64,000 bases of DNA, from positions 2,565 to 66,564 of the forward strand of contig CAKOJJ010000003.1 in the NCBI GenBank assembly GCA_934089275.1. Direction: 5' to 3'. How positions within the stretch are numbered: the first letter of the stretch is position 1; every line of letters begins with the position of its first letter. Of the stretch, positions 29,916 through 54,470 are shown one piece after another. Source of the stretch: an uncultured Bacilli bacterium. Lineage in GTDB: Bacteria; Bacillota_I; Bacilli_A; RF39; UBA660. A model generated the notes under the pieces. The model ran no database searches, was not told the origin of the DNA, and saw only the letters and a program-made list of their open reading frames with translations. The translations under genes and the position numbers were made by a program.

Positions 29916-30650
29916 ATGAAGGTATATATTGATTTAATTATTCTAATTAATTTTGTCTATGATTTTTTAATATTGGCTTCAACATCTGTTCTTTTAAAAA
30001 GAAATACCCCTTTAAGAAAACTTCTTATTGGTTCATTTATTGGTATTTTTAGTATATGTACATTGTTTATTAGACTTAATAGTATAGTTCTTTTGTTTTT
30101 TAAATTTATTTTAAGTTTAATTATGGTTATATTTACCTTTGGTAATAAAAATATTGTTGAGAACACTTTTTATTTTTATGTAATTACAATTATTATTGGA
30201 GGATGTCAATATATGTTAACTGGAAGTGCTTATAAAGTTAATCTTGTTATGATGATTATCATATCTCCAATAATTTTAGGAATATATATTTATGCAATGA
30301 GAAAATACAAAGTTGATTTAAAAAAAATATATGATTGCATAATTATTGATAAAGATAATACATATAATTTAAAAGGTTATATGGATACCGGTAATAATTT
30401 AACTGATCCTATAACAAAATTGCCAGTAATTATGGTTAACAATAAAATCAATTTTAAAAGTCATAAAATATTTTATGTACCATATAAAGTAATAAATAAT
30501 GAAGCAATTTTAAAATGTGTAAAAGTAGATAAAGTTTATATTGATTCTAAAGAAGTAAATGTTTTACTTGGATTAATTGACGAATCGGTGTTAAAAAATA
30601 ATATTGATATCATTTTAAATGAAAATATAAGAGGAGAGATAACATGCTAA
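29916..30650 (+). CDS. spoIIGA: Sigma-E processing peptidase SpoIIGA
   Basis: The N-terminus MKVYIDLIILINFVYDFLIL and the aspartic protease motif GYMDTGNNLTDPITKLPVIMV parallel B. subtilis SpoIIGA. It overlaps sigE. Confidence 0.85.
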   Translation: MKVYIDLIILINFVYDFLILASTSVLLKRNTPLRKLLIGSFIGIFSICTLFIRLNSIVLLFFKFILSLIMVIFTFGNKNIVENTFYFYVITIIIGGCQYMLTGSAYKVNLVMMIIISPIILGIYIYAMRKYKVDLKKIYDCIIIDKDNTYNLKGYMDTGNNLTDPITKLPVIMVNNKINFKSHKIFYVPYKVINNEAILKCVKVDKVYIDSKEVNVLLGLIDESVLKNNIDIILNENIRGEITC

Positions 30651-31333
30651 AAAAGATTATAAATAGAATATTAAAATTTTTAAAAGTAGGGGATTCATGT
30701 TTATTTGTTGGAAGTACAGATATTTTACCTCCACCACTTAGTAAAGAGGAAGAATATGAACTTGCTCTTAGAAGCAGTGAAGGTGATAAATTTGCTCGTG
30801 ATAAGCTTATTGAACACAATCTTCGTTTAGTTGTTTTTTTGGCTAAAAAGTATGAGAATACCGGCTATGACATAGAAGATTTAGTATCCATTGGATCAAT
30901 TGGTTTAATTAAGGGTATTAACACTTATAAGGCCGATAAAAATATTAAACTAGCCACTTATGTATCTCGTTGTATATCAAATGAAATATTGATGTTTTTA
31001 AGAAAAAATAAAAAGAAAAAAGTAGAAGTAAGCTTAGAAGAAACATTAAATTATGATGCTGAAGGAAATACTTTAGCTTTAGAAGATGTTTTAGGTACAG
31101 ATGAAGATATAGTTTTAGAAAATGTTAGTAAAAAACAGGAAGCAAAATATTTGGTTAATGAACTTAATATGTTAAATGACCGAGAAAAACTTATTATGAC
31201 TTTAAGATATGGACTTAATAACACTAAAGAATATACTCAAAAAGAAGTTGCAACAATGTTGGGAATATCTCAAAGTTATATTTCAAGAATAGAAAAGAAA
31301 GTTATAAGAAGAATCAAAGAAACAATTAATTAA
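30644..31333 (+). CDS. sigE: Sporulation sigma factor SigE (pro-sigma-E)
   Basis: ILPPPLSKEEE...GDKFARDKLIEHNLRLVV plus a region 4 HTH. It lies directly downstream of spoIIGA. Confidence 0.9.
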   Translation: MLKKIINRILKFLKVGDSCLFVGSTDILPPPLSKEEEYELALRSSEGDKFARDKLIEHNLRLVVFLAKKYENTGYDIEDLVSIGSIGLIKGINTYKADKNIKLATYVSRCISNEILMFLRKNKKKKVEVSLEETLNYDAEGNTLALEDVLGTDEDIVLENVSKKQEAKYLVNELNMLNDREKLIMTLRYGLNNTKEYTQKEVATMLGISQSYISRIEKKVIRRIKETIN

Positions 31334-36528: not shown

Positions 36529-37521
36529 ATGAATAATAAAACTTTGATATTAAGGCCAATGATGAAAATATCTGATATGGTTCCTTATTTGAAAAATAAA
36601 AACATTAAATTTGAATGTTGTTCAGAACAGGATGCTGAAATATATTTAAAAGAAAATAATAACTATTATAATGTAACATCATATAAAAATAATTTTGTTA
36701 AATATCAATGTGGTGAGCTTGAAGGAAAATATATAGATTTAGATTTTGCATATTTAAAAGATTTATCTATTATAGACTATAGAACTAGACTAGTATTATT
36801 TAAAATGATAATTGATATAGAACATTATTTAAAAATAAGAATACTAAATACTATTGAGGGAATATCAGAAGAGGATGGTTATAAAATTGTTAATTTATAT
36901 TTGGAAAAAGATTTTAATGACAAGGAACGTCCTAAAAGAGTGCATGAAAGCATTAGAAAAAAAGTATCAAATGAGTATTATCAAAAAATATTTTCTAAAT
37001 ACGATTTAGATAAAGATACTAAAATAGAAAATATACCTATTTGGGAATTCCTTGAAATAATCACATTTGGTGAATTGATTAATTTTTTTGATTTCTTTAC
37101 TAAGTATTATATTTTAGACGACAATAAATATATATTTATTTTAAGAGAAGTAAATAAACTTAGAAATGCTGTTGCTCATAATTCTTGTGTATTATGTGAG
37201 CTAGACAAAAAAGACAATACGCATAGAGTTGATACGTTAGTTATTAATTATTTAAAAGATTGTGGCATTGGGAAAGAGAATAGAAATACTAAACTTTCTA
37301 ATTCTAGAATAAGACAAATTACCTATACTTTATATATGTTTAATATTATAGTAAGTAGTGATGGCGTAAAGAATAATGTAAAACACGATATTACAAAATT
37401 ATTTTATGGAAGAATAATTTTAAATGGAAAATACTATAATAATAATGGACTATTGAAATCCATATATAATTATTTTGATAAAATTATTGAGAAAAATTAT
37501 AAAGAAAATTTGGAGCAATAG
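36529..37521 (+). CDS. Abi_2 (AbiD/AbiF-like) abortive-infection family protein
   Basis: YLKNKNIKF...AEIYLKENNNYYNVTSYKNNF...DLSIIDYRTRLVLFKMIIDIEHYLK...LRNAVAHNSCV follows the Abi_2 family pattern. Confidence 0.75.
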   Translation: MNNKTLILRPMMKISDMVPYLKNKNIKFECCSEQDAEIYLKENNNYYNVTSYKNNFVKYQCGELEGKYIDLDFAYLKDLSIIDYRTRLVLFKMIIDIEHYLKIRILNTIEGISEEDGYKIVNLYLEKDFNDKERPKRVHESIRKKVSNEYYQKIFSKYDLDKDTKIENIPIWEFLEIITFGELINFFDFFTKYYILDDNKYIFILREVNKLRNAVAHNSCVLCELDKKDNTHRVDTLVINYLKDCGIGKENRNTKLSNSRIRQITYTLYMFNIIVSSDGVKNNVKHDITKLFYGRIILNGKYYNNNGLLKSIYNYFDKIIEKNYKENLEQ

Positions 37522-38297: not shown

Positions 38298-38987
38298 ATG
38301 AAAAAGAAATTTTTACTATTAGGAATGATTCTAGTTGCAATATTAACTATTACAGGATGTAGAAAAGAGGAAAAGGTGATTATTAATAAAGATGGAGCTG
38401 GATTTAAAGAAGAATATGAATCTTTAAATGGAAAAGTAAATAGTGGAGGGAAAAAATATCGTACATTAACAATTACTAAAGATAATCCATTTATATATAT
38501 AACTCCAGAAAAATTATTAGAGAAAATGAATAATAAAGAAAGTTTTTACGTTTACTTTGGTTCTAAATTTTGTCCTTGGTGTCGAGCAGTAATTGAAACT
38601 GCCACAAAAGTTGTAAAGAAAAAAGAGTTAGATAAGATTTATTATATTGATATTTGGGATGATAAAGCAAATGAAATATTAAGAGATAAGTATATAATCA
38701 ACGACAATAATGAACTAGAGCAAGTGATTCAAGGAACTAAATCATATTATGAAATCCTTAAAAGATTTGATAGTTTATTAGATGATTATACTTTAACAGA
38801 TAAAAAAGGTAACCAAGTCCAAGTTGAGGAAAAAAGGATATTTGCTCCAAACTTTATATTTATTGAAAATGGAAATGCTAGAAGACTTGTATCCGGTATA
38901 CCTGACATGCTTAAAAATCCTCACGAAGAATTATCTGAAGAAGTATTAAAAGTTGAAGAAAATATTTTTAATGAATTTTTTGAATAG
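38298..38987 (+). CDS. Thioredoxin-fold lipoprotein
   Basis: Lipobox LTITGC after the signal peptide. CPWC redox motif (FGSKFCPWCRAV). GGAAGGAGAAAA RBS. Confidence 0.75.
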   Translation: MKKKFLLLGMILVAILTITGCRKEEKVIINKDGAGFKEEYESLNGKVNSGGKKYRTLTITKDNPFIYITPEKLLEKMNNKESFYVYFGSKFCPWCRAVIETATKVVKKKELDKIYYIDIWDDKANEILRDKYIINDNNELEQVIQGTKSYYEILKRFDSLLDDYTLTDKKGNQVQVEEKRIFAPNFIFIENGNARRLVSGIPDMLKNPHEELSEEVLKVEENIFNEFFE

Positions 38988-39722
38988 AATTGTGGAGATT
39001 AGTAAAAAATTTTCATAACAAAAACAAAGTGTTTATTAAAAAAGTATAAATTAACTAGCAGGCTATATTTAGGCTGCTTTTTTATAGTAGTGACTATAAT
39101 ATACTCGTGATAAACACAAAATCTTTAAAGAAAACTTTAAAAATGAAAAAATTACTTCAACTTTAAGAATAGAAATAATTTGTAATCTGCTAAAATAATT
39201 TAATTTAGCTGAAAATAATTTTGAAAAAGTCGGAAAAATGAATAAAAAAAGGGTTCTATTAAAAAAGTTGTAAGAGAAGTAATAAATGATTTTGTCAAAA
39301 GACTATATATTAGAAGTTATGATAAACCGATTAGCACTAGAAATGTTCTTATTAAATGAAGATATCAATTTTAACACATATAAAAAGTTGACTAATATAT
39401 TATTTAGAGAAGATAATTATTTAGTTAGATAGATTTAAATAAAGCTGTTGATTGAAAACAACTTGGATAAAGAAGACGAAATACTTGCTATGGAAAGAAA
39501 TCCTGTAAAAGATACAGAAATAAGATTGTTGCTTCAAAATGCTCCTACAGAGAAAGTAAATGACATACTAGTATTTAAGAAAGGTATTGATACAAGTTAT
39601 CAATATGAAGGATATTATACTTATAAACTTGAAAATTTAGATCAAAATGGCTAATTTTTTATAATAAATTAACCTTGTAAACATAAATGCTGTAATGTTA
39701 TATTATAAGTAAGGAGAGTTTT

Positions 39723-41234
39723 ATGAAAATTGAAAAAGTAAACCCAAAAACAAAATATTTATATCATTATACATTAAAAGAAAATGTAGAAAGTATTTTA
39801 AAAGATAAGGCTATAATTTCAAAAGATGAATATGTTTTTTTTACAGAAAGTTTAAATGATTCAATCAATGCTTTTGAGAATGAAAAATTGGTTCCTGGAA
39901 AATTATATGTTGATTTTAATGGTAATTTAAAAAAAAGAGATAAAGTTAATAAAGAAAATTATTGTATTATAAAAATACCATGTGTAGATGATAATAATTT
40001 TTACACATTTAGTTTTGATAATCAAAAAGATGATTCTATTTATGGAATTTCTATTACACACAAAGGATCATATTCTTTTGAAAAAGCAAAGGTTTTAGAA
40101 ATACCTAATTATAGAAAAATAAATCCATTGAAAAAGGTAGTTGCTACTGCAGCTATATCAAGTATACTTCTATTTCCATATAATACATTTGCTGCAAACT
40201 GGTTGGATACAAATAACTATGATACTAGTTGGTATGTAGAAACTACTAATTATTATGATATTAATAATGCAAAAGAATTAGCTGGTCTTGCATATTTAGT
40301 AAATAAAGAAAATATTACTTTTGAAAAAAAATATATTAATATTAACGCTGACATTGATTTAACTGAAAATAAATGGGAAGTAATAAAAGATATATTTAAT
40401 GGATCTATTTGTGGATCGCATCGTATTCTTTTAAATTATTTAGATAAGAATTTATTTTCAAATAAAACTTACAATAAGTTATCTTATTTATTTGAAGTAA
40501 GATTAGATACTTATAGAACAACAAAAGTAGAGATTGAATCTCCATATACAATACAATTGTTAAAAGAAAAATTAAATGCTAAATATGTGTTTTTTAAGAA
40601 TAAAGAATTAACTGATGATACTTTATTAACCTCTTTAAACTTAGATGAAAATGAATTACTTGAGGTATTTGAAAATAAATTTAAATATGTAATAAATTAT
40701 AAAGGTGACAAGTTCTCTTTTAATTTTGAAACTGGAGAATCTATAGAAAACGTTAAAGAAATGTATTCTAGCAGAACTAAATTACCTAAAGAAAGATTAG
40801 TTATTAAATTTAAAGATAAAGTTCTTAAAAATGATAGAACTTTGGCTGATTATAACATTCAACGTACCGAAGATATCTATGCATATTTTATGGCTAATGT
40901 AAAAACTACTATAAGTGATGGTGGTAAATATGAATTATCAACAACTGAAGCTTTATCAGGAGATGAAATAATACTTAAACTTATTCCTGAAGACGGCTAT
41001 GAACTTAAAAGTGTTTTAGTGAATGGAAAAGAATATTTGAACTCTGTAAATGATAATATTTTAAAATTTGTATGTGGTGAAGAAGATGTAGACATAAAAA
41101 TATCTTATAAATTAAAAGAAGATCAAATAAAGAATCCTAAAACGAATGACAATATAATCAAGTATATTTTTGTTTCTTTATTTTCTTTATGTAGCTTAGT
41201 TTCACTTAATATAAAGAGAAAACTTACTAAGTAA
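39723..41234 (+). CDS. Sortase B-anchored surface protein with two ubiquitin-like domains and an unusual N-terminal extension
   Basis: aa 1-135 form a soluble domain. aa 136-158 look like a signal peptide (KKVVATAAISSILLFPYNTFA). aa ~255-390 form two beta-grasp/ubiquitin-like modules (IENVK, RTLADYNIQ). The C-terminus is NPKTND plus a TM helix and a KRK tail. Confidence 0.8.
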   Translation: MKIEKVNPKTKYLYHYTLKENVESILKDKAIISKDEYVFFTESLNDSINAFENEKLVPGKLYVDFNGNLKKRDKVNKENYCIIKIPCVDDNNFYTFSFDNQKDDSIYGISITHKGSYSFEKAKVLEIPNYRKINPLKKVVATAAISSILLFPYNTFAANWLDTNNYDTSWYVETTNYYDINNAKELAGLAYLVNKENITFEKKYININADIDLTENKWEVIKDIFNGSICGSHRILLNYLDKNLFSNKTYNKLSYLFEVRLDTYRTTKVEIESPYTIQLLKEKLNAKYVFFKNKELTDDTLLTSLNLDENELLEVFENKFKYVINYKGDKFSFNFETGESIENVKEMYSSRTKLPKERLVIKFKDKVLKNDRTLADYNIQRTEDIYAYFMANVKTTISDGGKYELSTTEALSGDEIILKLIPEDGYELKSVLVNGKEYLNSVNDNILKFVCGEEDVDIKISYKLKEDQIKNPKTNDNIIKYIFVSLFSLCSLVSLNIKRKLTK

Positions 41235-41376: not shown

Positions 41377-42597
41377 ATGAAAAAAGTTAGTAGACTAGTT
41401 TTATCTTTAATTATTGGATTATTTATTTTTTCTACAAATGTATTTGCAAAAAATGAAATAACTTTAAACTTTGATGGTGGAATTATTCATGATGGGTATG
41501 TGGAATATGCCGAAATAGGAAAATTACAATTATTTAAAGGTGATGATTTGGTTGTAAATGTTGAAAACAATATGAAAATTGATTTAGATGAAGATAGTTA
41601 TAATCTTTCGATTGAAGCACTTACTGCTTCAGGTATGACGAATACATTGTCGGTAAAATTGAAAATCAATAAATGGTATTATGCTTCAACAAGATCTAAT
41701 TCTAAAATTGAATTTAACCTAGATTCAAGCAAATTCAGTGAAACATTAGATATTAAACTTGAAAGAACAGGGGCAGTTGTTAATACAAAGGTGGAAGATG
41801 TTTTCACGAAAATAAAACCTATTGCAACAATTGATTTAACTAGTGATTGTGTAATTGATTTTACAAAAGAAGACGAACTAACAAAAAGTTTAAAAATGTT
41901 TGCAGATTTAGAGAAAACTATATATTACAAAATCGAAAGTAACGGGTTAGTAAAAACTGAAAATGAAAACGAAGCTAATATAAAAATAGTTGGTAACAAA
42001 GCGGAAAACAAAGCAATAATTAAAGTTTTAAATGTTGGCAATAAAAAAGAAGAAACAATTAAAGGAGTAAAAGTTGTATATACTGGATCTGATTTGAAAT
42101 ATCAAGGAAGTGTTGAGGATATAATAACTGAAACAAGAACTGATTATTACACAATAAATGATTATGAATATACATTCCAATATTCAAAAAAAGAAACAAC
42201 AGATTATAAATTCATTGAAGGTGAAAATCAAATTTATACAATTAATAAATTTGATAAAATGACTTTTAGAATAAATGTTGATTATAGTTTATTTGAAAAT
42301 GGTGGAAAAGTATTTATAGATGATGTTCTAGTTGATTCTAAAAATTATACTTCTTTAAGTGGTAGTACAATAATTACTTTTAATAGAGAATATGTTGATA
42401 CACTAAAACTTGGAGAACATACTTTAAAAGTAGTATTTAATAATGGTGTTGAAACATCTACTAAGTTTACGATTAATGAAGAAGTTAAAAATCCTAAAAC
42501 CAGTGATAATGTTTTTACATACATCATGTTATCAGTAATATCTGTTTTAGGAATAATTACAATTTTATTATTTAATAATAAAAAAATTAAAAATTAG
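41377..42597 (+). CDS. Sortase B-anchored surface protein
   Basis: Signal peptide ending NVFA-KNE. The C-terminus is NPKTSD (42490-42507), a TM helix and a basic tail. Confidence 0.8.
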   Translation: MKKVSRLVLSLIIGLFIFSTNVFAKNEITLNFDGGIIHDGYVEYAEIGKLQLFKGDDLVVNVENNMKIDLDEDSYNLSIEALTASGMTNTLSVKLKINKWYYASTRSNSKIEFNLDSSKFSETLDIKLERTGAVVNTKVEDVFTKIKPIATIDLTSDCVIDFTKEDELTKSLKMFADLEKTIYYKIESNGLVKTENENEANIKIVGNKAENKAIIKVLNVGNKKEETIKGVKVVYTGSDLKYQGSVEDIITETRTDYYTINDYEYTFQYSKKETTDYKFIEGENQIYTINKFDKMTFRINVDYSLFENGGKVFIDDVLVDSKNYTSLSGSTIITFNREYVDTLKLGEHTLKVVFNNGVETSTKFTINEEVKNPKTSDNVFTYIMLSVISVLGIITILLFNNKKIKN

Positions 42598-42609: not shown

Positions 42610-44082
42610 ATGAAAATAAAAAACACTTTATTTATGATGTTAATTGCAGTAATTGGTATTTTAGGTTTTAATACAGTAAATGCTGCAACTATAAGTGAAA
42701 ATGGAAAATATTCTTTAGTGCTAACTATTGATGGTTTAGAAGATGGTGTTATCGATGATGGAGAATATGCAAAACTTATAAGATTTAATGTTGAAAATGG
42801 AGAAACAACTGTTAAAGTATCTGAATTAACAAAAGGAATTACTCCATTTAATGGAAAAAATGAATTTTCTCATTGGGTAAATTCAAGCAAGGAAAAAGTT
42901 GACGAATTAAGCATATCTGATTTTACTAGTAATGGTAACTTTTATACTTCAACTGGTAAAGAAGTAACATATTCAAATGGTTTTAGACTTATAGCAAAAT
43001 TTGAAGGAAAATCATTAGAAGATGGAGATAACTATTATGTAACTCTTGATGCCTTTGGAGGAGAAGTAAATAGTAAAGCTAAACTATCATTAACAAGTTC
43101 AAAAGAAACATTTAAAACAATTAATTTAAAAAATTATGTACCAGTTAGAAAAGGATATACTTTTATAGGTTGGGACTTAAACGGAAAAATTGTTACTTCT
43201 ATTGATTCAAGTGCTTTTACAAAAAGTGTTACCATTACTGTAACTGCAACTTATACAAAAAATGCTTTTGATGGAACTGACAGAGTATTAATCTTAGATG
43301 CTAATGGTGGAACTATTGACAATGAATTATCTAAAAAGTACGATTATTTAGGTGGAGGAAATTCTGGAACAGCCATGTCACTTTTACCATATGTTCCAAC
43401 AAGAAAAGGATATACATTCAATGGATGGAATTCTAAAAAAGATGGAAGTGAAAAGAAATATTCTTATATCTATTGGAGAAAATGGGATAAAGATGATGAA
43501 GAAGATCTTCAAAGAGACACTATGATAACAAATGAAAATGGTGCTGAATATTATCAAAATGTAACTTTATATGCAACTTGGACTAAAAACTCAACTGAAG
43601 AAGAAACTGTAAAAGAAATTCAAAGTACTGGTGAAACTAAAGGACAAATTGAATTTTCTGAAGGAGTTAATAAAGACTATAAATTGGATATTAAACCAAT
43701 GGAAGTAAAAAAAGAATTAACAGATAAAAATGTTAAATATATTGTAGATATTAATGTATTAGATAATGGTCAAATTGTAGAAATTAGTAATACTAAAATG
43801 AAAATAAGATTTGCTTTACCAGAAGATTTAAAAGGATATAAAACATATAAAATCGTTTATATTTTAAATGGTGAAATAAAAGAAACTATTCCAGCAACTA
43901 TTGAAGATGGATATATAGTTTTTGAAACAAGTCATTTAAGTGAGTACGGAGTTATTGCAACAAATGAAACTGTTACTAATCCAAAGACTTTAGACAATAT
44001 ACTTTTATACTTTGTAATAAGTGTTTTATCTTTAACAGGTGTTATTGGTACTTATCTATATAAGAAAAAAATGCAAAATTAA
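42610..44082 (+). CDS. Sortase B-anchored surface protein with Listeria-Bacteroides (Flg_new) repeats
   Basis: Signal peptide ending VNA-ATI. Repeats YVPVRKGYTFIGWDLNG and YVPTRKGYTFNGWNSKKDG. The C-terminus is NPKTLD (43978-43995), a TM helix and a KKK tail. Confidence 0.82.
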   Translation: MKIKNTLFMMLIAVIGILGFNTVNAATISENGKYSLVLTIDGLEDGVIDDGEYAKLIRFNVENGETTVKVSELTKGITPFNGKNEFSHWVNSSKEKVDELSISDFTSNGNFYTSTGKEVTYSNGFRLIAKFEGKSLEDGDNYYVTLDAFGGEVNSKAKLSLTSSKETFKTINLKNYVPVRKGYTFIGWDLNGKIVTSIDSSAFTKSVTITVTATYTKNAFDGTDRVLILDANGGTIDNELSKKYDYLGGGNSGTAMSLLPYVPTRKGYTFNGWNSKKDGSEKKYSYIYWRKWDKDDEEDLQRDTMITNENGAEYYQNVTLYATWTKNSTEEETVKEIQSTGETKGQIEFSEGVNKDYKLDIKPMEVKKELTDKNVKYIVDINVLDNGQIVEISNTKMKIRFALPEDLKGYKTYKIVYILNGEIKETIPATIEDGYIVFETSHLSEYGVIATNETVTNPKTLDNILLYFVISVLSLTGVIGTYLYKKKMQN

Positions 44083-44107
44083 AAGAGCTTTCTTAGCTCT
44101 TTTTTTC
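44083..44107. terminator. Bidirectional terminator between convergent genes
   Basis: AAGAGCT / AGCTCTT stem flanked by A- and T-runs. It overlaps both stop codons. Confidence 0.7.
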
Positions 44108-44896
44108 ATATTTTATTAATTTTGCATGAACTACTAATTTTTCATTAGTTCTGTAACATGTTGATAAAGTTAGTATTTTATCATTTGTAGTGACTTCAGT
44201 ATTAAATTTATATATGCTTCTATTTTTTATTAAGTTAATAAATTCTTTATATTCATCGTCAGTACTAAAATTTGTTTTTAAGTAATCCAAAGAAGTTGGT
44301 ATATGATAAATACTAAATATTTGATATAAACCATTTTCTTTTTCAGTTGATACTTTTATTATGTGATTGCTTTTTTCATTAAACCAACTTTTTTTTAAAG
44401 TATTGCTTAATGAACCAAACATTGTTTTATCTTTTCTATTATGAGCATATATAATTGAATTTTTATTATCTAATAAGTTATTTCTATAATCTAAAAATAA
44501 CCAACCAGCATCATTTTTCTTTTTGTTAAAACTATGGGTTAAATAATAATCATTGTTGTCTGTTTGGACAAAAGGATAATTTATATTTGTTCCATTAACA
44601 GTTATCCAACCAACTATATCTTTATTCGTACTTTTTAACTTAGAAAAATCAACATCTATTAAACTCATTTGTATATAATCCCAATAAGGGTTATCTTTTT
44701 TTGGAGTTTCTTGTTGTTCAACAATTTCTGAATTATCAGTGCTTTCTTTTATATCAACATTTTCTAAGGTTTTATTGAGTTCATTTGTTATCTTATCTGA
44801 ATCGTTTTTCCAGTTAATTATTTTATATAATGAAAAACAAAAAAGAAGAATAAAAATAATCATCAAAATATTTATAAATAATTTTCTTTTATTCAT
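44093..44896 (-). CDS. srtB: Class B sortase
   Basis: N-terminal anchor, NKDIVGWITVNGTNINYPFVQ, YAHN, and catalytic TLSTC...VVHAKLI. Co-linear with S. aureus SrtB by eye. Confidence 0.88.
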   Translation of the reverse strand: MNKRKLFINILMIIFILLFCFSLYKIINWKNDSDKITNELNKTLENVDIKESTDNSEIVEQQETPKKDNPYWDYIQMSLIDVDFSKLKSTNKDIVGWITVNGTNINYPFVQTDNNDYYLTHSFNKKKNDAGWLFLDYRNNLLDNKNSIIYAHNRKDKTMFGSLSNTLKKSWFNEKSNHIIKVSTEKENGLYQIFSIYHIPTSLDYLKTNFSTDDEYKEFINLIKNRSIYKFNTEVTTNDKILTLSTCYRTNEKLVVHAKLIKYEKKS

Positions 44897-46961: not shown

Positions 46962-48407
46962 ATGTTAGAAAGTGAAATATTAGAGATAAATTCTTTTATT
47001 AATTCTTGTGAAAAAGATTTTTATAATGACATATATGACAAAGATAAAATTGATATTGCTAGAAAATATTTTCAAAGAGTTAAGCAAGTTGCTGATATTG
47101 AAAAAAATGCTTATTTTGTTGCTATTTCAGAAAAACTTTGGTTTATTATAAAAAATATTTCTGTACATTATAAAAAGAACAATTCAACTACTGTAAAACC
47201 TGAAGAGGTTTTGGATTTAGTTTCTGATACAAGTATTACACAATATGTTATTTCTTTGATAATTGAAAAACGTTTAATAGATCCCAAACTTATTGCACGT
47301 TTTGCTTATATAGAACTTTCTAAACTTGTATATTATGATATATCTTATTCAAAAATAACTGATAGAAATAGGAGAGATATTATAGTTAATACTCCTATCA
47401 ATGTATATAATGCAAAACTATTTTCTTATGTTGTTTGTACTCAATGGTTACAATTATACACATATATTTTATCTCAATTTGGTATGACAATTAGAAAGAT
47501 GAATAGAACCGGAGAAGATCATGTTTGGGGTGAAATAGATATAAATGATGATGAGATCATTATAGTTGACGCTACGGATTATATTGGAAATTCAATTGAT
47601 TTAAGTAATGCTAAATCAATAAGTCCAACTAAAGGATTTTTAATTGTACCTAAAAAATATTCAGGTATTAAACTATTTGATATCTATAATCTTGCTGAAA
47701 ATAGAGAAATCCTTAAAGAATTAAGTAAGTATTATGATTTGAATAGAGAATTAGATATGAGTCTTGGTTTAATTACTAATTCGACATATCCGATAGAAGA
47801 GTTGTTAAATTCAACTGAGTTGTTTGCAAGTAATACATCGTCAATAGATAATCCAAAAGAAGCTTCTAGATTCTTTAAACAAGCACGAAATTTTATACTA
47901 AATACTCCTTTACCAAATAATATGGATGGATATGAAGCGTTTGCTTATTATTATAAATTTATTGAAAGATTACCAATAAATATAAGAGGATGTTTATCAA
48001 TGAAAACTTTGTATGCAGATTCTTTTGATTATAAACAAAAACTTTTGAAAAAGAAGTATTTAAATGCTCCTGTTGAATATTTAAAATATCTAGAAGATTT
48101 AGTTTATTCAAGATATTACGAATATTTCCAAGGAGGGATAAGTGAAGGATCCTTATTTGAAAAAATTCGTAATGGTTATATTGATATTGATAAATTAAGT
48201 GATCTTGTTTTAACAGAAGAACTTAAAATAGCAGAAATTAATAGAAGACTTAATCCATATTATGCTATTAATGAGTTAACTTTTTATAATATGTTTGAAG
48301 ATGATTTTGATTCTATGTCTTTATTATATGAACCAGCTTTAGGTAAAAAACTTTATAAATCTCCAGATGATTTAAATGCATTTAAAAGAGAAAACAATTT
48401 GTTATAA
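46962..48407 (+). CDS. Transglutaminase-like (papain-fold) domain protein
   Basis: Cys-His-Asp arrangement VVCTQW ... GEDHVWGEIDI ... IIVDATD, typical of the transglutaminase-like core. Confidence 0.6.
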   Translation: MLESEILEINSFINSCEKDFYNDIYDKDKIDIARKYFQRVKQVADIEKNAYFVAISEKLWFIIKNISVHYKKNNSTTVKPEEVLDLVSDTSITQYVISLIIEKRLIDPKLIARFAYIELSKLVYYDISYSKITDRNRRDIIVNTPINVYNAKLFSYVVCTQWLQLYTYILSQFGMTIRKMNRTGEDHVWGEIDINDDEIIIVDATDYIGNSIDLSNAKSISPTKGFLIVPKKYSGIKLFDIYNLAENREILKELSKYYDLNRELDMSLGLITNSTYPIEELLNSTELFASNTSSIDNPKEASRFFKQARNFILNTPLPNNMDGYEAFAYYYKFIERLPINIRGCLSMKTLYADSFDYKQKLLKKKYLNAPVEYLKYLEDLVYSRYYEYFQGGISEGSLFEKIRNGYIDIDKLSDLVLTEELKIAEINRRLNPYYAINELTFYNMFEDDFDSMSLLYEPALGKKLYKSPDDLNAFKRENNLL

Positions 48408-52991: not shown

Positions 52992-54470
52992 ATGGATGGT
53001 GATATTATGCAAAGTATTAAATCAGATATTGAGGAATTAAAGGAACTTGCTAATTCTGCTGAAATGACTTCCGAAGAAAAGAAAATTATAACAAAATTTT
53101 TAAATTATATTAGGTTAAATATTAAATTAAGTATTTTTAATAAGGTTATTTCTAGTAAAGATGAAGTTACAGAATTGGTTGCTTCAATTGATAATTTAAT
53201 TTCTATGTATGAACAATCTTTAAGAAATAGTGTTGATGATAATGGTTATAGTTTTAAGATAAAAAGACTTAATGAAATAAAGGCCAGTATTTTAGAAAAC
53301 AATTATGAATATTTTGTACAAGATATAATTAATGATTTTCAAGATGAACAAGAACTTATTGATATGTGCAGTTTATCATTATCATCTGATTATCGAAAAT
53401 TTGAAACTTATTTTGGTAAACCATTGGTTTCAAATGACGGAAAAAGTATTCATGGTTATAAAATAGATGAAGAAACTGTTGATCGTGTATTTAGTATAAT
53501 TATGAATAGACCTTTAAATAGAAGTATTAATAGTTATGTATTTGCTCTAAAATCATCTCAAAAATTTGATTTTAAATTAAAACAATTAAAGAATAGAAGA
53601 GAATTGTTTGAAAAGTGTATTGAAAATCATGATTTATTAGAAGACTTCATAAAAACTCTTGTTGAATTAGCAAAAGAAAAAGAAGAGTATGGAAAATATG
53701 AAAGTGTTTATAGAAGAAATAATAATGTGATTCAAGTAATAGATTCAGGATCTTTTCTTGAAAGACTTAGTAAAAAATACGAAAGAGCTAAAAGAGTAGA
53801 GGAAAACGAGAGACTTGAAAAAGATTATCTTCAAACTCAAAGAGAGCGTATAGCAACATTAGAAGAAAAAAGAAACGATTTATTTACAAAATTAGCTGAT
53901 GTTGGATTAGAATATGTGTTAATTCAATTAGAAAATAAAATAAAAATGGTAAATGCAAAAGTAATTTATGAAATTGATCCTAAAACGGTTGATAATTATG
54001 ATCATGTTGCCCATACATTGTTTAATGAATTAATAGCTTTTAACAATAAATCAATATTCTCAAAAGATGCTAGGTGTCAAAGAGAAATTGATTTGGCTGA
54101 TGATCTTTATAGTTTAATTCTTGAAGAAAAACAAAAATATATAACAAAAAAAGAAAATATTTTTTACAATATGGACGCTGCTGGTCAAACTTTAATAAAT
54201 GAGCATTTAAGTGACTGTGTTAAAATTTCTGAATTAGAAAATTCTGATAGAAGGTACTGTGTTTCTCCAATGTTAAGTGCATTTATAATAAGAGTTATTT
54301 CTAAACTAAAAGGCATTAGTTTTAATGATTTAAGTGAAACTTTCTTGGATGAGAGTGATCAAAATAAATTAAAAAAAGATTATGATGATTTTATAAATAG
54401 AAAAATTGGTGAAGTTTACGATCAAATTAGTCGATTAAAAGATGATGAAGTTCCTATAAATAATTTATAG
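52992..54470 (+). CDS. Hypothetical coiled-coil protein (492 aa)
   Basis: Long ORF. ATG 53007 is an alternative start. No family recognised. Confidence 0.6.
   Translation: MDGDIMQSIKSDIEELKELANSAEMTSEEKKIITKFLNYIRLNIKLSIFNKVISSKDEVTELVASIDNLISMYEQSLRNSVDDNGYSFKIKRLNEIKASILENNYEYFVQDIINDFQDEQELIDMCSLSLSSDYRKFETYFGKPLVSNDGKSIHGYKIDEETVDRVFSIIMNRPLNRSINSYVFALKSSQKFDFKLKQLKNRRELFEKCIENHDLLEDFIKTLVELAKEKEEYGKYESVYRRNNNVIQVIDSGSFLERLSKKYERAKRVEENERLEKDYLQTQRERIATLEEKRNDLFTKLADVGLEYVLIQLENKIKMVNAKVIYEIDPKTVDNYDHVAHTLFNELIAFNNKSIFSKDARCQREIDLADDLYSLILEEKQKYITKKENIFYNMDAAGQTLINEHLSDCVKISELENSDRRYCVSPMLSAFIIRVISKLKGISFNDLSETFLDESDQNKLKKDYDDFINRKIGEVYDQISRLKDDEVPINNL

Follow-up and report, generated by a model that had tools for sequence, protein, structure and literature searches.

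How does a domain of the ubiquitin family come to lie inside a predicted surface protein of a gut bacterium, and what could it do there? The question is raised by a stretch of 64,000 nucleotides from an uncultured Bacilli bacterium (contig CAKOJJ010000003.1 of assembly GCA_934089275.1), which is called the window below. One of its genes encodes a protein of 503 amino acids (aa) with two ubiquitin-like (UBL) domains, UBL1 and UBL2, hereafter the UBL protein. An initial annotation, made from the letters of the sequence, had placed the two domains at 40485..40892, that is, residues 255-390 of the open reading frame (ORF) 39723..41234 on the plus strand, in which the peptide strings that it quoted are found exactly. 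We favour, with a probability of roughly 0.55, the view that the gene encodes a wall-anchored precursor in which a captured ubiquitin would have been turned into stalk or spacer modules. The parts of the gene on which this view is built are the following:

39711..39718, plus strand: ribosome-binding site AAGGAGAG, read from the sequence, ahead of the ATG at 39723
39723..41234, plus strand: UBL gene, 503-aa protein; ORF with a ribosome-binding site
39723..40112, plus strand: N-domain (aa 1-130), likely of ADP-ribosyltransferase (ART) fold, predicted to be cytoplasmic; AlphaFold2 (AF2) model, Foldseek, profiles
40113..40193, plus strand: linker and internal signal-peptide-like segment (aa 131-157, RKINPLKK-VVATAAISSILLF-PYNTFA); family conservation
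40194..40472, plus strand: W-domain (aa 158-250), predicted N-terminal head of the mature protein; pLDDT around 95, conservation
40482..40673, plus strand: UBL1 (aa 254-317), trimmed ubiquitin-fold domain; sub-threshold PF00240 match, hhalign, AF2, Foldseek
40677..40898, plus strand: UBL2 (aa 319-392); PF00240, PDB ubiquitin, residue mapping, family profile
40899..41117, plus strand: all-beta domain (aa 393-465) resembling a divergent InlB B-repeat (Flg_new_2); PF18998, AF2
41133..41234, plus strand: cell-wall sorting signal, with NPKTN (aa 471-475), hydrophobic segment, NIKRKLTK tail and stop; read from the sequence

The long version of the ORF, starting at 39723, is preferred because the AAGGAGAG site lies upstream and because about 100 clusters of homologues (at 90% identity) cover the query from residue 1. 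Members of this family are 465-598 aa long and almost all align end to end. An 85%-identical homologue in a metagenome-assembled genome (MAG) from the Hadza gut lies in the same gene neighbourhood; this conserved synteny and the full-length homologue clusters indicate that the gene is real and not an assembly artefact. Mean pairwise identity within the family is 0.73 for the N-domain, 0.64 for the W-domain, 0.55 for UBL2, 0.50 for the B-repeat-like domain and 0.48 for UBL1. Since automatic annotation already names family members 'ubiquitin-like protein', the domain match itself is not new to the databases, and with some 100 clusters in this family alone, such sequences are less rare there than the initial annotation had assumed.

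Two head-to-tail domains of the ubiquitin fold

Residues 323-381, within UBL2, match the Pfam ubiquitin family (PF00240) with E = 2.6e-13. The score is 50 bits for the whole protein and 47.5 bits for UBL2 as an isolated domain, against a cut-off of 25.4, and the SUMO-like Rad60-SLD model is far weaker on this protein (23.5 bits). A phmmer search of all chains in the Protein Data Bank (PDB) returned ubiquitin and polyubiquitin, mono-ubiquitin chains having E values of about 4e-6. UBL2 can be aligned with residues 1-76 of ubiquitin without a gap, and its local identity is 20/65 (31%). The hand count of 18/61 in the initial annotation differs slightly from this figure, but its ungapped alignment stands, as do the two motifs that it had singled out, IENVK and RTLADYNIQ, both of which are present in UBL2.

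UBL1 scores below the Pfam threshold (16.5 bits, E = 0.007, over positions 3-68 of the hidden Markov model) and carries a deletion of 8 residues after the helix, corresponding to the loop around residues 34-41 of ubiquitin. When the columns of UBL1 and UBL2 in the family alignment were compared by hhalign, the probability was 70% (E = 4e-5). The AF2 model, computed with 68 homologues as input, has a mean pLDDT of 86, with values above 90 across most of the UBL region, where the succession beta-beta-alpha-beta-beta occurs twice. Searched with Foldseek, this model matches linear di-, tri- and tetra-ubiquitin (E = 5e-12 to 1e-9) and the two-domain protein ISG15 (about 1e-8), both UBL domains being spanned by these alignments. 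The predicted fold is thus the beta-grasp that the initial annotation had anticipated, and its claim of two tandem ubiquitin-like domains is upheld, UBL2 belonging to the ubiquitin family proper by both Pfam and Foldseek. The domains are arranged head to tail with a linker of 3 residues. In having two such beta-grasp domains and a short linker, UBL1-UBL2 resembles polyubiquitin, ISG15 and FAT10, its best Foldseek matches; unlike these, it has neither a conjugation tail nor the recognition patch of ubiquitin, stands in a predicted extracellular, wall-anchored setting, and has the 8-residue deletion in its first copy.

Could this likeness have arisen by chance, or by convergence of an unrelated bacterial beta-grasp domain? 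That UBL1 alone stays under the Pfam threshold and that UBL2 is merely 31% identical to human ubiquitin would be in line with such a scenario. However, the Pfam match (E = 2.6e-13), the Foldseek results, the residue mapping (gapless over 76 residues of ubiquitin, with the core kept) and the family profile, which clearly favours ubiquitin over NEDD8 and SUMO1, effectively refute it already, and intermediates with up to 87% identity exist at homologous positions of related secreted proteins (see below); we regard it as next to impossible. By sequence comparison, UBL2 is confirmed as a ubiquitin-family domain whose resemblance to ubiquitin goes far beyond chance, and the structural model confirms UBL1 as a trimmed, sub-threshold copy of the same fold. 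A second ubiquitin-like sequence in the window, at 62973..63077 (tblastn E = 0.004), proved spurious: it is a 'LIFAGKQL'-like stretch (LIFAGKNL) in an LtaS/sulfatase-like ORF (62703..64000) that continues past the window end.

Predicted anchoring to the cell wall by a class B sortase

The UBL protein ends in NPKTN-DNIIKYIFVSLFSLCSLVSL-NIKRKLTK, the C-terminal layout of class B sortase substrates. In an alignment of 68 homologues, to which all conservation counts in this text refer, P472, T474 and D476 are nearly invariant, and the motif of the family can be written NPxT[GNS]-DN. Class B sortases recognize motifs of the NPxT[NG] type, such as NPQTN in Staphylococcus aureus IsdC or NPKTG in Bacillus anthracis. 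A gene for a sortase of this class lies 3 kb downstream of the UBL gene, as expected of a cognate enzyme, behind two genes for further proteins with sorting signals:

41377..42597, plus strand: surface protein, 406 aa, with N-terminal signal peptide, CBM_X2-like region and NPKTSD sorting signal; sequence, Pfam
42610..44082, plus strand: surface protein, 490 aa, with signal peptide, Listeria-Bacteroides repeats (PF09479, E = 5e-11; TIGR02543) and NPKTLD sorting signal
44081..44103, both strands: bidirectional terminator-like hairpin, with the last substrate gene on one side and the convergent sortase gene on the other; terminator scan
44093..44896, minus strand: class B sortase, 267 aa, with TLSTC active-site motif; TIGR03064, PF04203

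The sortase scores 181.9 bits with TIGR03064 (sortase_srtB; cut-off 153.75) and matches PF04203 with E = 5e-13, and the hairpin accounts for both terminator-like sites found by the scan (the same hairpin on the two strands, against 0.6 expected). A 47%-identical homologue of the UBL protein also has a sortase encoded immediately downstream. The NPKTN motif, the hydrophobic segment, the KRK tail and the nearby class B sortase agree with the sortase-anchored surface protein of the initial annotation, and anchoring of the UBL protein to the cell wall by this sortase is well supported by the sequence. The protein shares an NPxT[NG]-type signal and an adjacent srtB gene with substrates such as S. 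aureus IsdC (NPQTN); it differs from them in lacking a NEAT/haem-uptake context and in having a folded domain ahead of its signal peptide.

Related secreted ubiquitin domains and a probable origin by capture

Other exported proteins of Firmicutes carry a far less diverged ubiquitin domain directly after the signal-peptide cleavage site. Those used here for comparison, with their identity to human ubiquitin, are:

WP_013483628.1: Ruminococcus albus 7 megaplasmid, 'ubiquitin family protein'; 66/76 (87%)
P0113 (L024 643..2043): metagenomic, NPKTFDN sorting signal, class-B-like sortase adjacent, 26% GC; 78%
L020 ORF 4632..5318: gut MAG; 66%
P0115 (L023 6001..7857): choline-binding repeats, SPQTG signal, ordinary chromosomal context; 64%

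In the R. albus 7 protein, the ubiquitin domain forms the mature N-terminus and keeps L8, I44, H68 and V70 without the Gly-Gly. This protein of 246 aa is encoded on pRUMAL01 (NC_014824.1 387760-388500; L047 4923..5663) of a cultured rumen Firmicute, and we found no paper on it. The C-terminal region of P0113 resembles that of the 406-aa neighbour of the UBL protein, and the L020 ubiquitin gene lies directly upstream of a gene for an N-domain, a signal peptide and a W-domain without any UBL. Together with P0116, the listed proteins are, like the UBL protein, secreted or sortase-anchored Firmicute proteins with a PF00240 domain. They differ from it by their single ubiquitin domain after the signal peptide, the absence of both an ART-fold N-domain and a W-domain, and their other C-terminal parts. 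Identity to human ubiquitin falls in steps from R. albus (87%) over P0113 (78%), L020 (66%) and P0115 (64%) to the consensus of the UBL protein family (44%) and the window protein (31%). At 64-87% identity to ubiquitin, the other Firmicute secreted proteins exceed the 63% reported for the Bacteroides fragilis ubiquitin (PMC3352274), which the initial annotation had cited as the known precedent.

UBL2 of the window is closer to the bacterial domains (48% identity to P0115) than to human ubiquitin. The family profile of UBL2 gives 84.8 bits for P0113, 83.1 for P0115, 81.4 for a giant-virus ubiquitin of the 'ESGD' type and 73.0 for human ubiquitin, as against 50.5 for NEDD8 and 21.4 for SUMO1 (the latter two sequences being entered by hand). 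The substitution S57A is common to R. albus, P0113, P0115 and the window protein family, and P19S/S20G ('ESGD') is common to P0113, P0115, the family consensus and some giant-virus ubiquitins; the window protein itself reads T19-G20. The group formed by R. albus 7, P0113, P0115/P0116 and L020 shares S57A and mostly ESGD with the family, and P0113 moreover has the same NPKT type of signal beside a class-B-like sortase. Two contigs of the IMG/VR collection (L025 3496..3732 and L026 8979..9509) encode a giant-virus-type ubiquitin and a di-ubiquitin with the ESGD signature, neither of which belongs to the window family. This signature of giant-virus ubiquitins is a possible clue to the donor lineage. 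From these likenesses, we infer that the UBL domains probably derive from a captured ubiquitin of eukaryotic or giant-virus type, acquired by gut or rumen Firmicutes in a horizontal transfer that would be old, since the GC content at third codon positions of the UBL-coding DNA equals that of the remaining gene. The captured ubiquitin would have been fused repeatedly behind signal peptides in these Firmicutes and would then have diverged in the window family, with loss of the Gly-Gly tail and the Ile44 patch. The head-to-tail arrangement of the UBL domains, with a linker of 3 residues, could go back to a polyubiquitin as well as to a duplication within the gene.

In the published literature, eukaryote-type ubiquitins of bacteria are those of Bacteroides, namely BfUbb and, later, BoUbb; B. 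fragilis has even been called the only bacterium known to have one (PMC6194340). Our search of the literature on surface-bound ubiquitin domains of Firmicutes returned papers on Bacteroides ubiquitin homologues only. The present data point to a second, larger and unstudied reservoir in gut and rumen Firmicutes, where domains of the ubiquitin family lie behind signal peptides in at least five architectures, with identities from 87% down to around 30%. Such proteins could form a natural series in which to follow how a eukaryotic signalling protein, once captured, is domesticated as a building block outside the cell, and which of its surfaces are kept or discarded, and ubiquitin-like epitopes displayed by abundant gut bacteria would bear on the question of antigenic mimicry raised for BfUbb. 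What appears to be new in the window is the architecture of a bacterial ubiquitin homologue, probably acquired by horizontal transfer, as tandem internal modules of a sortase-anchored protein, and the structural role that it would play there.

A retained core and a lost recognition surface

When the 68 homologues are mapped on ubiquitin, UBL2 proves to have retained the hydrophobic core, the K27-D52 pair and the turn R54-T55-L56-x-D58-Y59-N60-I61. The recognition surface has been replaced: L8 by S or Y, I44 by K (58/68), H68 by D, N or Y, V70 by Y (61/68) and R42 by I or V. At the tail, I or V and N or K stand in place of G75-G76, and the polypeptide does not end there but leads into the following domain. 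Even P0113, at 78% identity, shows I44T, H68Q, V70T and G75N/G76N; 7 of its 18 changes fall on the 12 recognition and tail positions (hypergeometric p of about 0.005, for a set of positions chosen post hoc).

Because the Gly-Gly tail and the Ile44 patch are lost, the UBL domains would be neither conjugated nor recognized as ubiquitin. The initial annotation was right that neither domain has a C-terminal Gly-Gly, and the domains lack the features of a conjugatable modifier, both the exposed Gly-Gly and nearby E1, E2 or protease genes: no E1, E2 or JAB gene is present among the ORFs scanned at 29.9-33 and 36.5-54.5 kb of the window, nor in four homologous loci. In contrast, its suggestion of host mimicry through binding of receptors of the UBA/UIM type is not supported. 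The L8-I44-H68-V70 patch that a mimic for UBA, UIM or CUE receptors would present is gone from UBL2, the domains are internal, and P0101, a relative that has kept all other parts of the protein, is without both UBL domains.

An ART-like N-domain ahead of a predicted internal signal peptide

The initial annotation had overlooked that the protein has no N-terminal signal peptide, but starts with a conserved domain of 130 aa followed by an internal one. No other part of the protein is as conserved as this N-domain, whose invariant residues include Y12, Y14, H15, T17, F39, F40, E54, Y62, D64, R72, Y80, D90 and H113. A separate AlphaFold model reaches a pLDDT of 91.4, and most of its highest-probability Foldseek matches in the PDB are ART-fold proteins, including Tpt1/KptA (E = 3.5e-3, TM-score 0.50), DarT, cholera toxin A1, TreTu and CC0527. 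Among the matches in BFVD, a collection of viral structures (E = 5.7e-4), are phage DarT, RNA 2'-phosphotransferase and RNA polymerase ADP-ribosyltransferase. At the sequence level, the profile of the N-domain gives a weak match to Tpt1 in the PDB (LYHGT..YVHLS against YLYHYT..YVFFT). The N-domain of the window protein has no Pfam match, and those of its homologues match PTS_2-RNA, Tox-ART-HYD1 and DarT at 12-18 bits, below the cut-offs of 22.5-26. Inspection for the H-Y-E/D triad showed an invariant H15 and candidate Y/F residues, and no acidic residue could be placed securely. The structural model makes it likely that the N-domain belongs to the ART superfamily, all family matches being sub-threshold. 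With the ART proteins of the H-Y-[E/D] clade (Tpt1/KptA, DarT, Tox-ART-HYD1), it would share the fold as well as a motif in beta-1, [LY]-Y-H-x-T, after which comes Y-V-x-[FL]-[ST]. Unlike Tpt1, it has merely 130 aa and no Tpt1 N-lobe, and unlike the known members of the clade, it stands upstream of a signal peptide in the long surface proteins examined and lacks a securely placed catalytic acid.

Among 1.84 billion representatives, an exhaustive profile search yielded 109 proteins with an N-domain, which lies at the N-terminal end in 108 of them, mostly from within the first dozen residues; a profile search of a word-indexed protein database returned short fragments only and added little. Short proteins of 130-260 aa consist of the domain alone, without export signal. 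In the long ones that were examined, a linker and a signal-peptide-like segment come next and most end in an NPxTG-type signal; the W-domain follows in most cases, though not in Mogibacterium-type proteins (P0126, L019). The N-domain also precedes unrelated ectodomains.

The internal segment starts around residue 137 and consists of a basic stretch (RKINPLKK), a hydrophobic core of about 13 residues (VVATAAISSILLF) and PYNTFA, with a predicted signal peptidase I site after A157 (TFA / ANW). Proline at position -6 is found in 65/68 homologues and alanine at -1 in 66/68, with T, A or V at -3 and Y or F at -2. The segment thus has the basic n-region, hydrophobic h-region and small residues at -3 and -1 of Sec-type signal peptides, its c-region resembles those of the N-terminal signal peptides of the two neighbouring genes (NVFA / K and NTVNA / A), and it departs from the type in its location behind a folded domain of 130 aa. 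The pLDDT of the AF2 model is below 50 across it. We also considered an internal start that would make this an ordinary signal peptide. Although the window has a TTG at L137, the family shows no conserved start codon or methionine at this place, and about 100 clusters carry the N-domain in fused form. It seems probable from this conservation that signal peptidase cuts after A157. Because the N-flank of the hydrophobic segment is basic, the N-domain is predicted to lie in the cytoplasm. As an export architecture, an ART-fold domain ahead of a signal peptide is unusual; we found nothing relevant in the literature on a domain preceding the signal peptide of sortase substrates, and the novelty of this module may exceed that of the UBL domains.

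Stalk modules or binding modules

The precursor would thus consist, in order, of the ART-fold N-domain, the internal Sec signal peptide, the W-domain, UBL1-UBL2, the B-repeat-like domain and the NPKTN sorting signal. While the N-domain would stay in the cytoplasm, the W-domain would become the distal head of the mature protein. Its pattern is WLD..YDxSWY..AGLAxLVN..TFEGK..W..GxHR, with W160, W170, G188, W218, G231, H233 and R234 invariant. It matches no Pfam family, its sequence matches in the PDB are at chance level, and a profile search of the word-indexed protein database gave short fragments that added little; homologous N-terminal modules are widespread in secreted proteins, sometimes with GLUG (PF07581) or Peptidase_M26_N (PF05342). 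On the other side of the UBL domains, residues 393-465 (pLDDT around 95) score 20.2 bits with PF18998 when taken alone (E = 6e-4, below the cut-off of 23.6), and the homologues P0012, P0065, P0099 and P0130 carry PF18998 matches, that of P0130 with 27 bits. We rejected a third ubiquitin fold for this region, which has no profile similarity to the UBL domains and no helix in the model.

The UBL domains and the B-repeat-like domain could form a compact, stable stalk that holds the head off the wall, and we consider a role as spacer the most likely one for the UBL domains. Several observations favour it: they are internal, between head and anchor; P0101 keeps all but them; in other relatives, different ectodomains follow the N-domain, signal peptide and W-domain; and conservation is lower in the UBL domains (0.48 and 0.55) than in the head (0.64). 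Beta-grasp folds related to ubiquitin (Pfam clan CL0072) are, moreover, listed among the stalk repeats of wall-attached proteins (PMC9704523) and are thus a recognized class of such repeats. Like the stalk modules of Gram-positive bacteria (InlB B-repeat/Flg_new_2, 'Periscope' repeats), the UBL domains would be small stable domains between the wall anchor and a distal domain; those modules are bacterial families without detectable sequence relation to ubiquitin, whereas the UBL domains of the window fall in the ubiquitin family itself. Some features weigh against a mere spacer. The polar surface of UBL2 is strongly conserved (E18-S22 loop, K27, K33, K48, D52, R54-T55-D58-N60), which could mean binding rather than maintenance of the fold, and a new ligand-binding surface on the UBL domains is possible. 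The number of UBL domains is fixed in the family (two, or none in P0101), unlike in typical stalks of variable length, and a low-complexity spacer that could span the wall is all but missing from the window protein, so that the wall may enclose part of the 'stalk'. Finally, the ubiquitin domain stands at the mature tip, the usual place for ligand binding, in R. albus 7, P0113, P0115 and L020, and the R. albus copy keeps L8, I44, H68 and V70.

In a rival reading, which widens the proposal of the initial annotation, the UBL domains would be functional ligand-binding or effector modules: an adhesin or decoy whose non-canonical surface engages a partner from the host or from a microbe. The position of the ubiquitin domain right after the signal-peptide site in the four related proteins, the I44 patch kept in R. 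albus, the many polar surface residues of UBL2 with a conservation of 80% or more, where overall identity is about 50%, and the gut-dwelling habit of these organisms all speak for binding. We nevertheless think it rather unlikely, as the patch formed by I44, L8, H68 and V70 is replaced in the window family (I44K in 58/68), the domains are internal and absent from some relatives of the family, and the head is more conserved than they are. An activity like that of BfUbb, in which the UBL domains would be released to kill or inhibit competing bacteria, seems very unlikely. BfUbb and BoUbb are indeed exported eukaryote-type ubiquitins of gut bacteria, without Gly-Gly tail and attributed to horizontal transfer (PMC3352274, PMC5705921, PMC11467351), that act as antibacterial toxins (PMC5705921, PMC11467351), and the window protein resembles them in its eukaryote-type ubiquitin-family sequence, gut bacterial host, signal-peptide export and missing Gly-Gly. 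But BfUbb belongs to a Gram-negative bacterium; it is a free protein with some 76 aa, 63% identical to ubiquitin (PMC3352274), which is imported by a SusCD transporter. The window protein has two diverged copies instead, one with 31% identity and one trimmed, as internal modules of a sortase-anchored Gram-positive protein; they are embedded in a wall-anchored chain of 503 aa with no evident release site, and so differ from a free-standing released toxin of about 76 aa. Moreover, the logic of SusCD-type import does not apply to Gram-positive targets, and the loci of the homologues have no immunity-like gene as a consistent neighbour.

Alternatively, the chain might not be cut by signal peptidase at all. 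The hydrophobic segment would then stay in the membrane with the C-terminus on the peptidoglycan, and the beta-grasp domains would act as a tether reporting to the ART domain, the whole being a trans-envelope sensor. Such a topology is compatible with a cytoplasmic N-terminus and a C-terminal sorting signal, and the N-domain, more conserved than any other part, also occurs as a stand-alone cytoplasmic protein. RsgI-type anti-sigma factors have the same layout of cytoplasmic domain, single span and outside sensor, which counts in its favour. A hydrophobic core of merely about 13 residues and the strongly conserved Pro(-6)...[TAV]-[YF]-A / A motif argue instead for cleavage, no catalytic Glu or Asp is securely placed in the N-domain and its ART-family matches are all sub-threshold; we hold this reading to be improbable. 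Doubtful too, if a shade less so, is the broader proposal of a two-compartment protein of undescribed kind, in which a cytoplasmic ART-fold enzyme or sensor and a wall-anchored ectodomain derived from captured ubiquitin are made as one chain. In one version, signal peptidase would free one cytoplasmic ART domain for each surface protein exported; in the other, the uncut chain would be a covalent tether from wall to membrane, through which the UBL domains relay envelope strain or ligand binding to the ART domain. We rejected a functional link of the ART domain with the UBL domains, as in the ADP-ribosylation of ubiquitin by SidE or CteC: the membrane would separate the two, each is found without the other in relatives, and R42 has not been conserved.

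Distribution and gene neighbourhood

The organism is an uncultured low-GC gut Firmicute. The GC content around the UBL gene is 23-27%, and the window also encodes a PPDK, a SpoIIGA with a sigma factor and an LCP-family gene. Relatives of the protein were found in human-gut metagenome assemblies and in MAGs whose labels read uncultured Bacilli, Clostridium sp., Clostridia and Candidatus Coprovivens, in agreement with the probable host-associated Firmicute of the initial annotation. Carriage of the UBL gene by a prophage or phage was rejected, as no relative of the family was found in the IMG/VR viral collection or among the INPHARED phages. A strict DNA pattern with two motifs had no match in JGI metagenomes, and promoter matches were no commoner than in shuffled sequence.

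Two genes lie just upstream of the UBL gene:

36529..37521: Abi_2 (abortive-infection-like) gene; PF07751, E = 1e-23
38298..38987: lipoprotein with a thioredoxin-like CxxC region; weak similarity to PedC/BrcD bacteriocin-maturation disulfide isomerases

This flank is variable, relatives carrying an acetyltransferase and Fic there instead of the Abi_2 and lipoprotein genes. Between the lipoprotein gene and the UBL gene are short ORFs or remnants at 39448..39654 and 39240..39430, with a 68-aa ORF starting at TTG and a truncated, signal-peptide-like start (MNKKRVLLKKL), which may be the debris of a former gene. Farther away, two large ORFs, one of 481 aa at 46962..48407 and one of 492 aa at 52992..54470, gave no Pfam match at E <= 0.001. 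The SpoIIGA protease and adjacent sigma factor, a sporulation pair of sigma-E type at 29916..31333, suggest that the bacterium is a spore former or descends from one. Finally, a protein of 153 aa encoded at 61748..62209 has a prepilin-type N-terminus (KNGFTLVEVLAVISILGVV), as in type IV pilins or competence pseudopilins.

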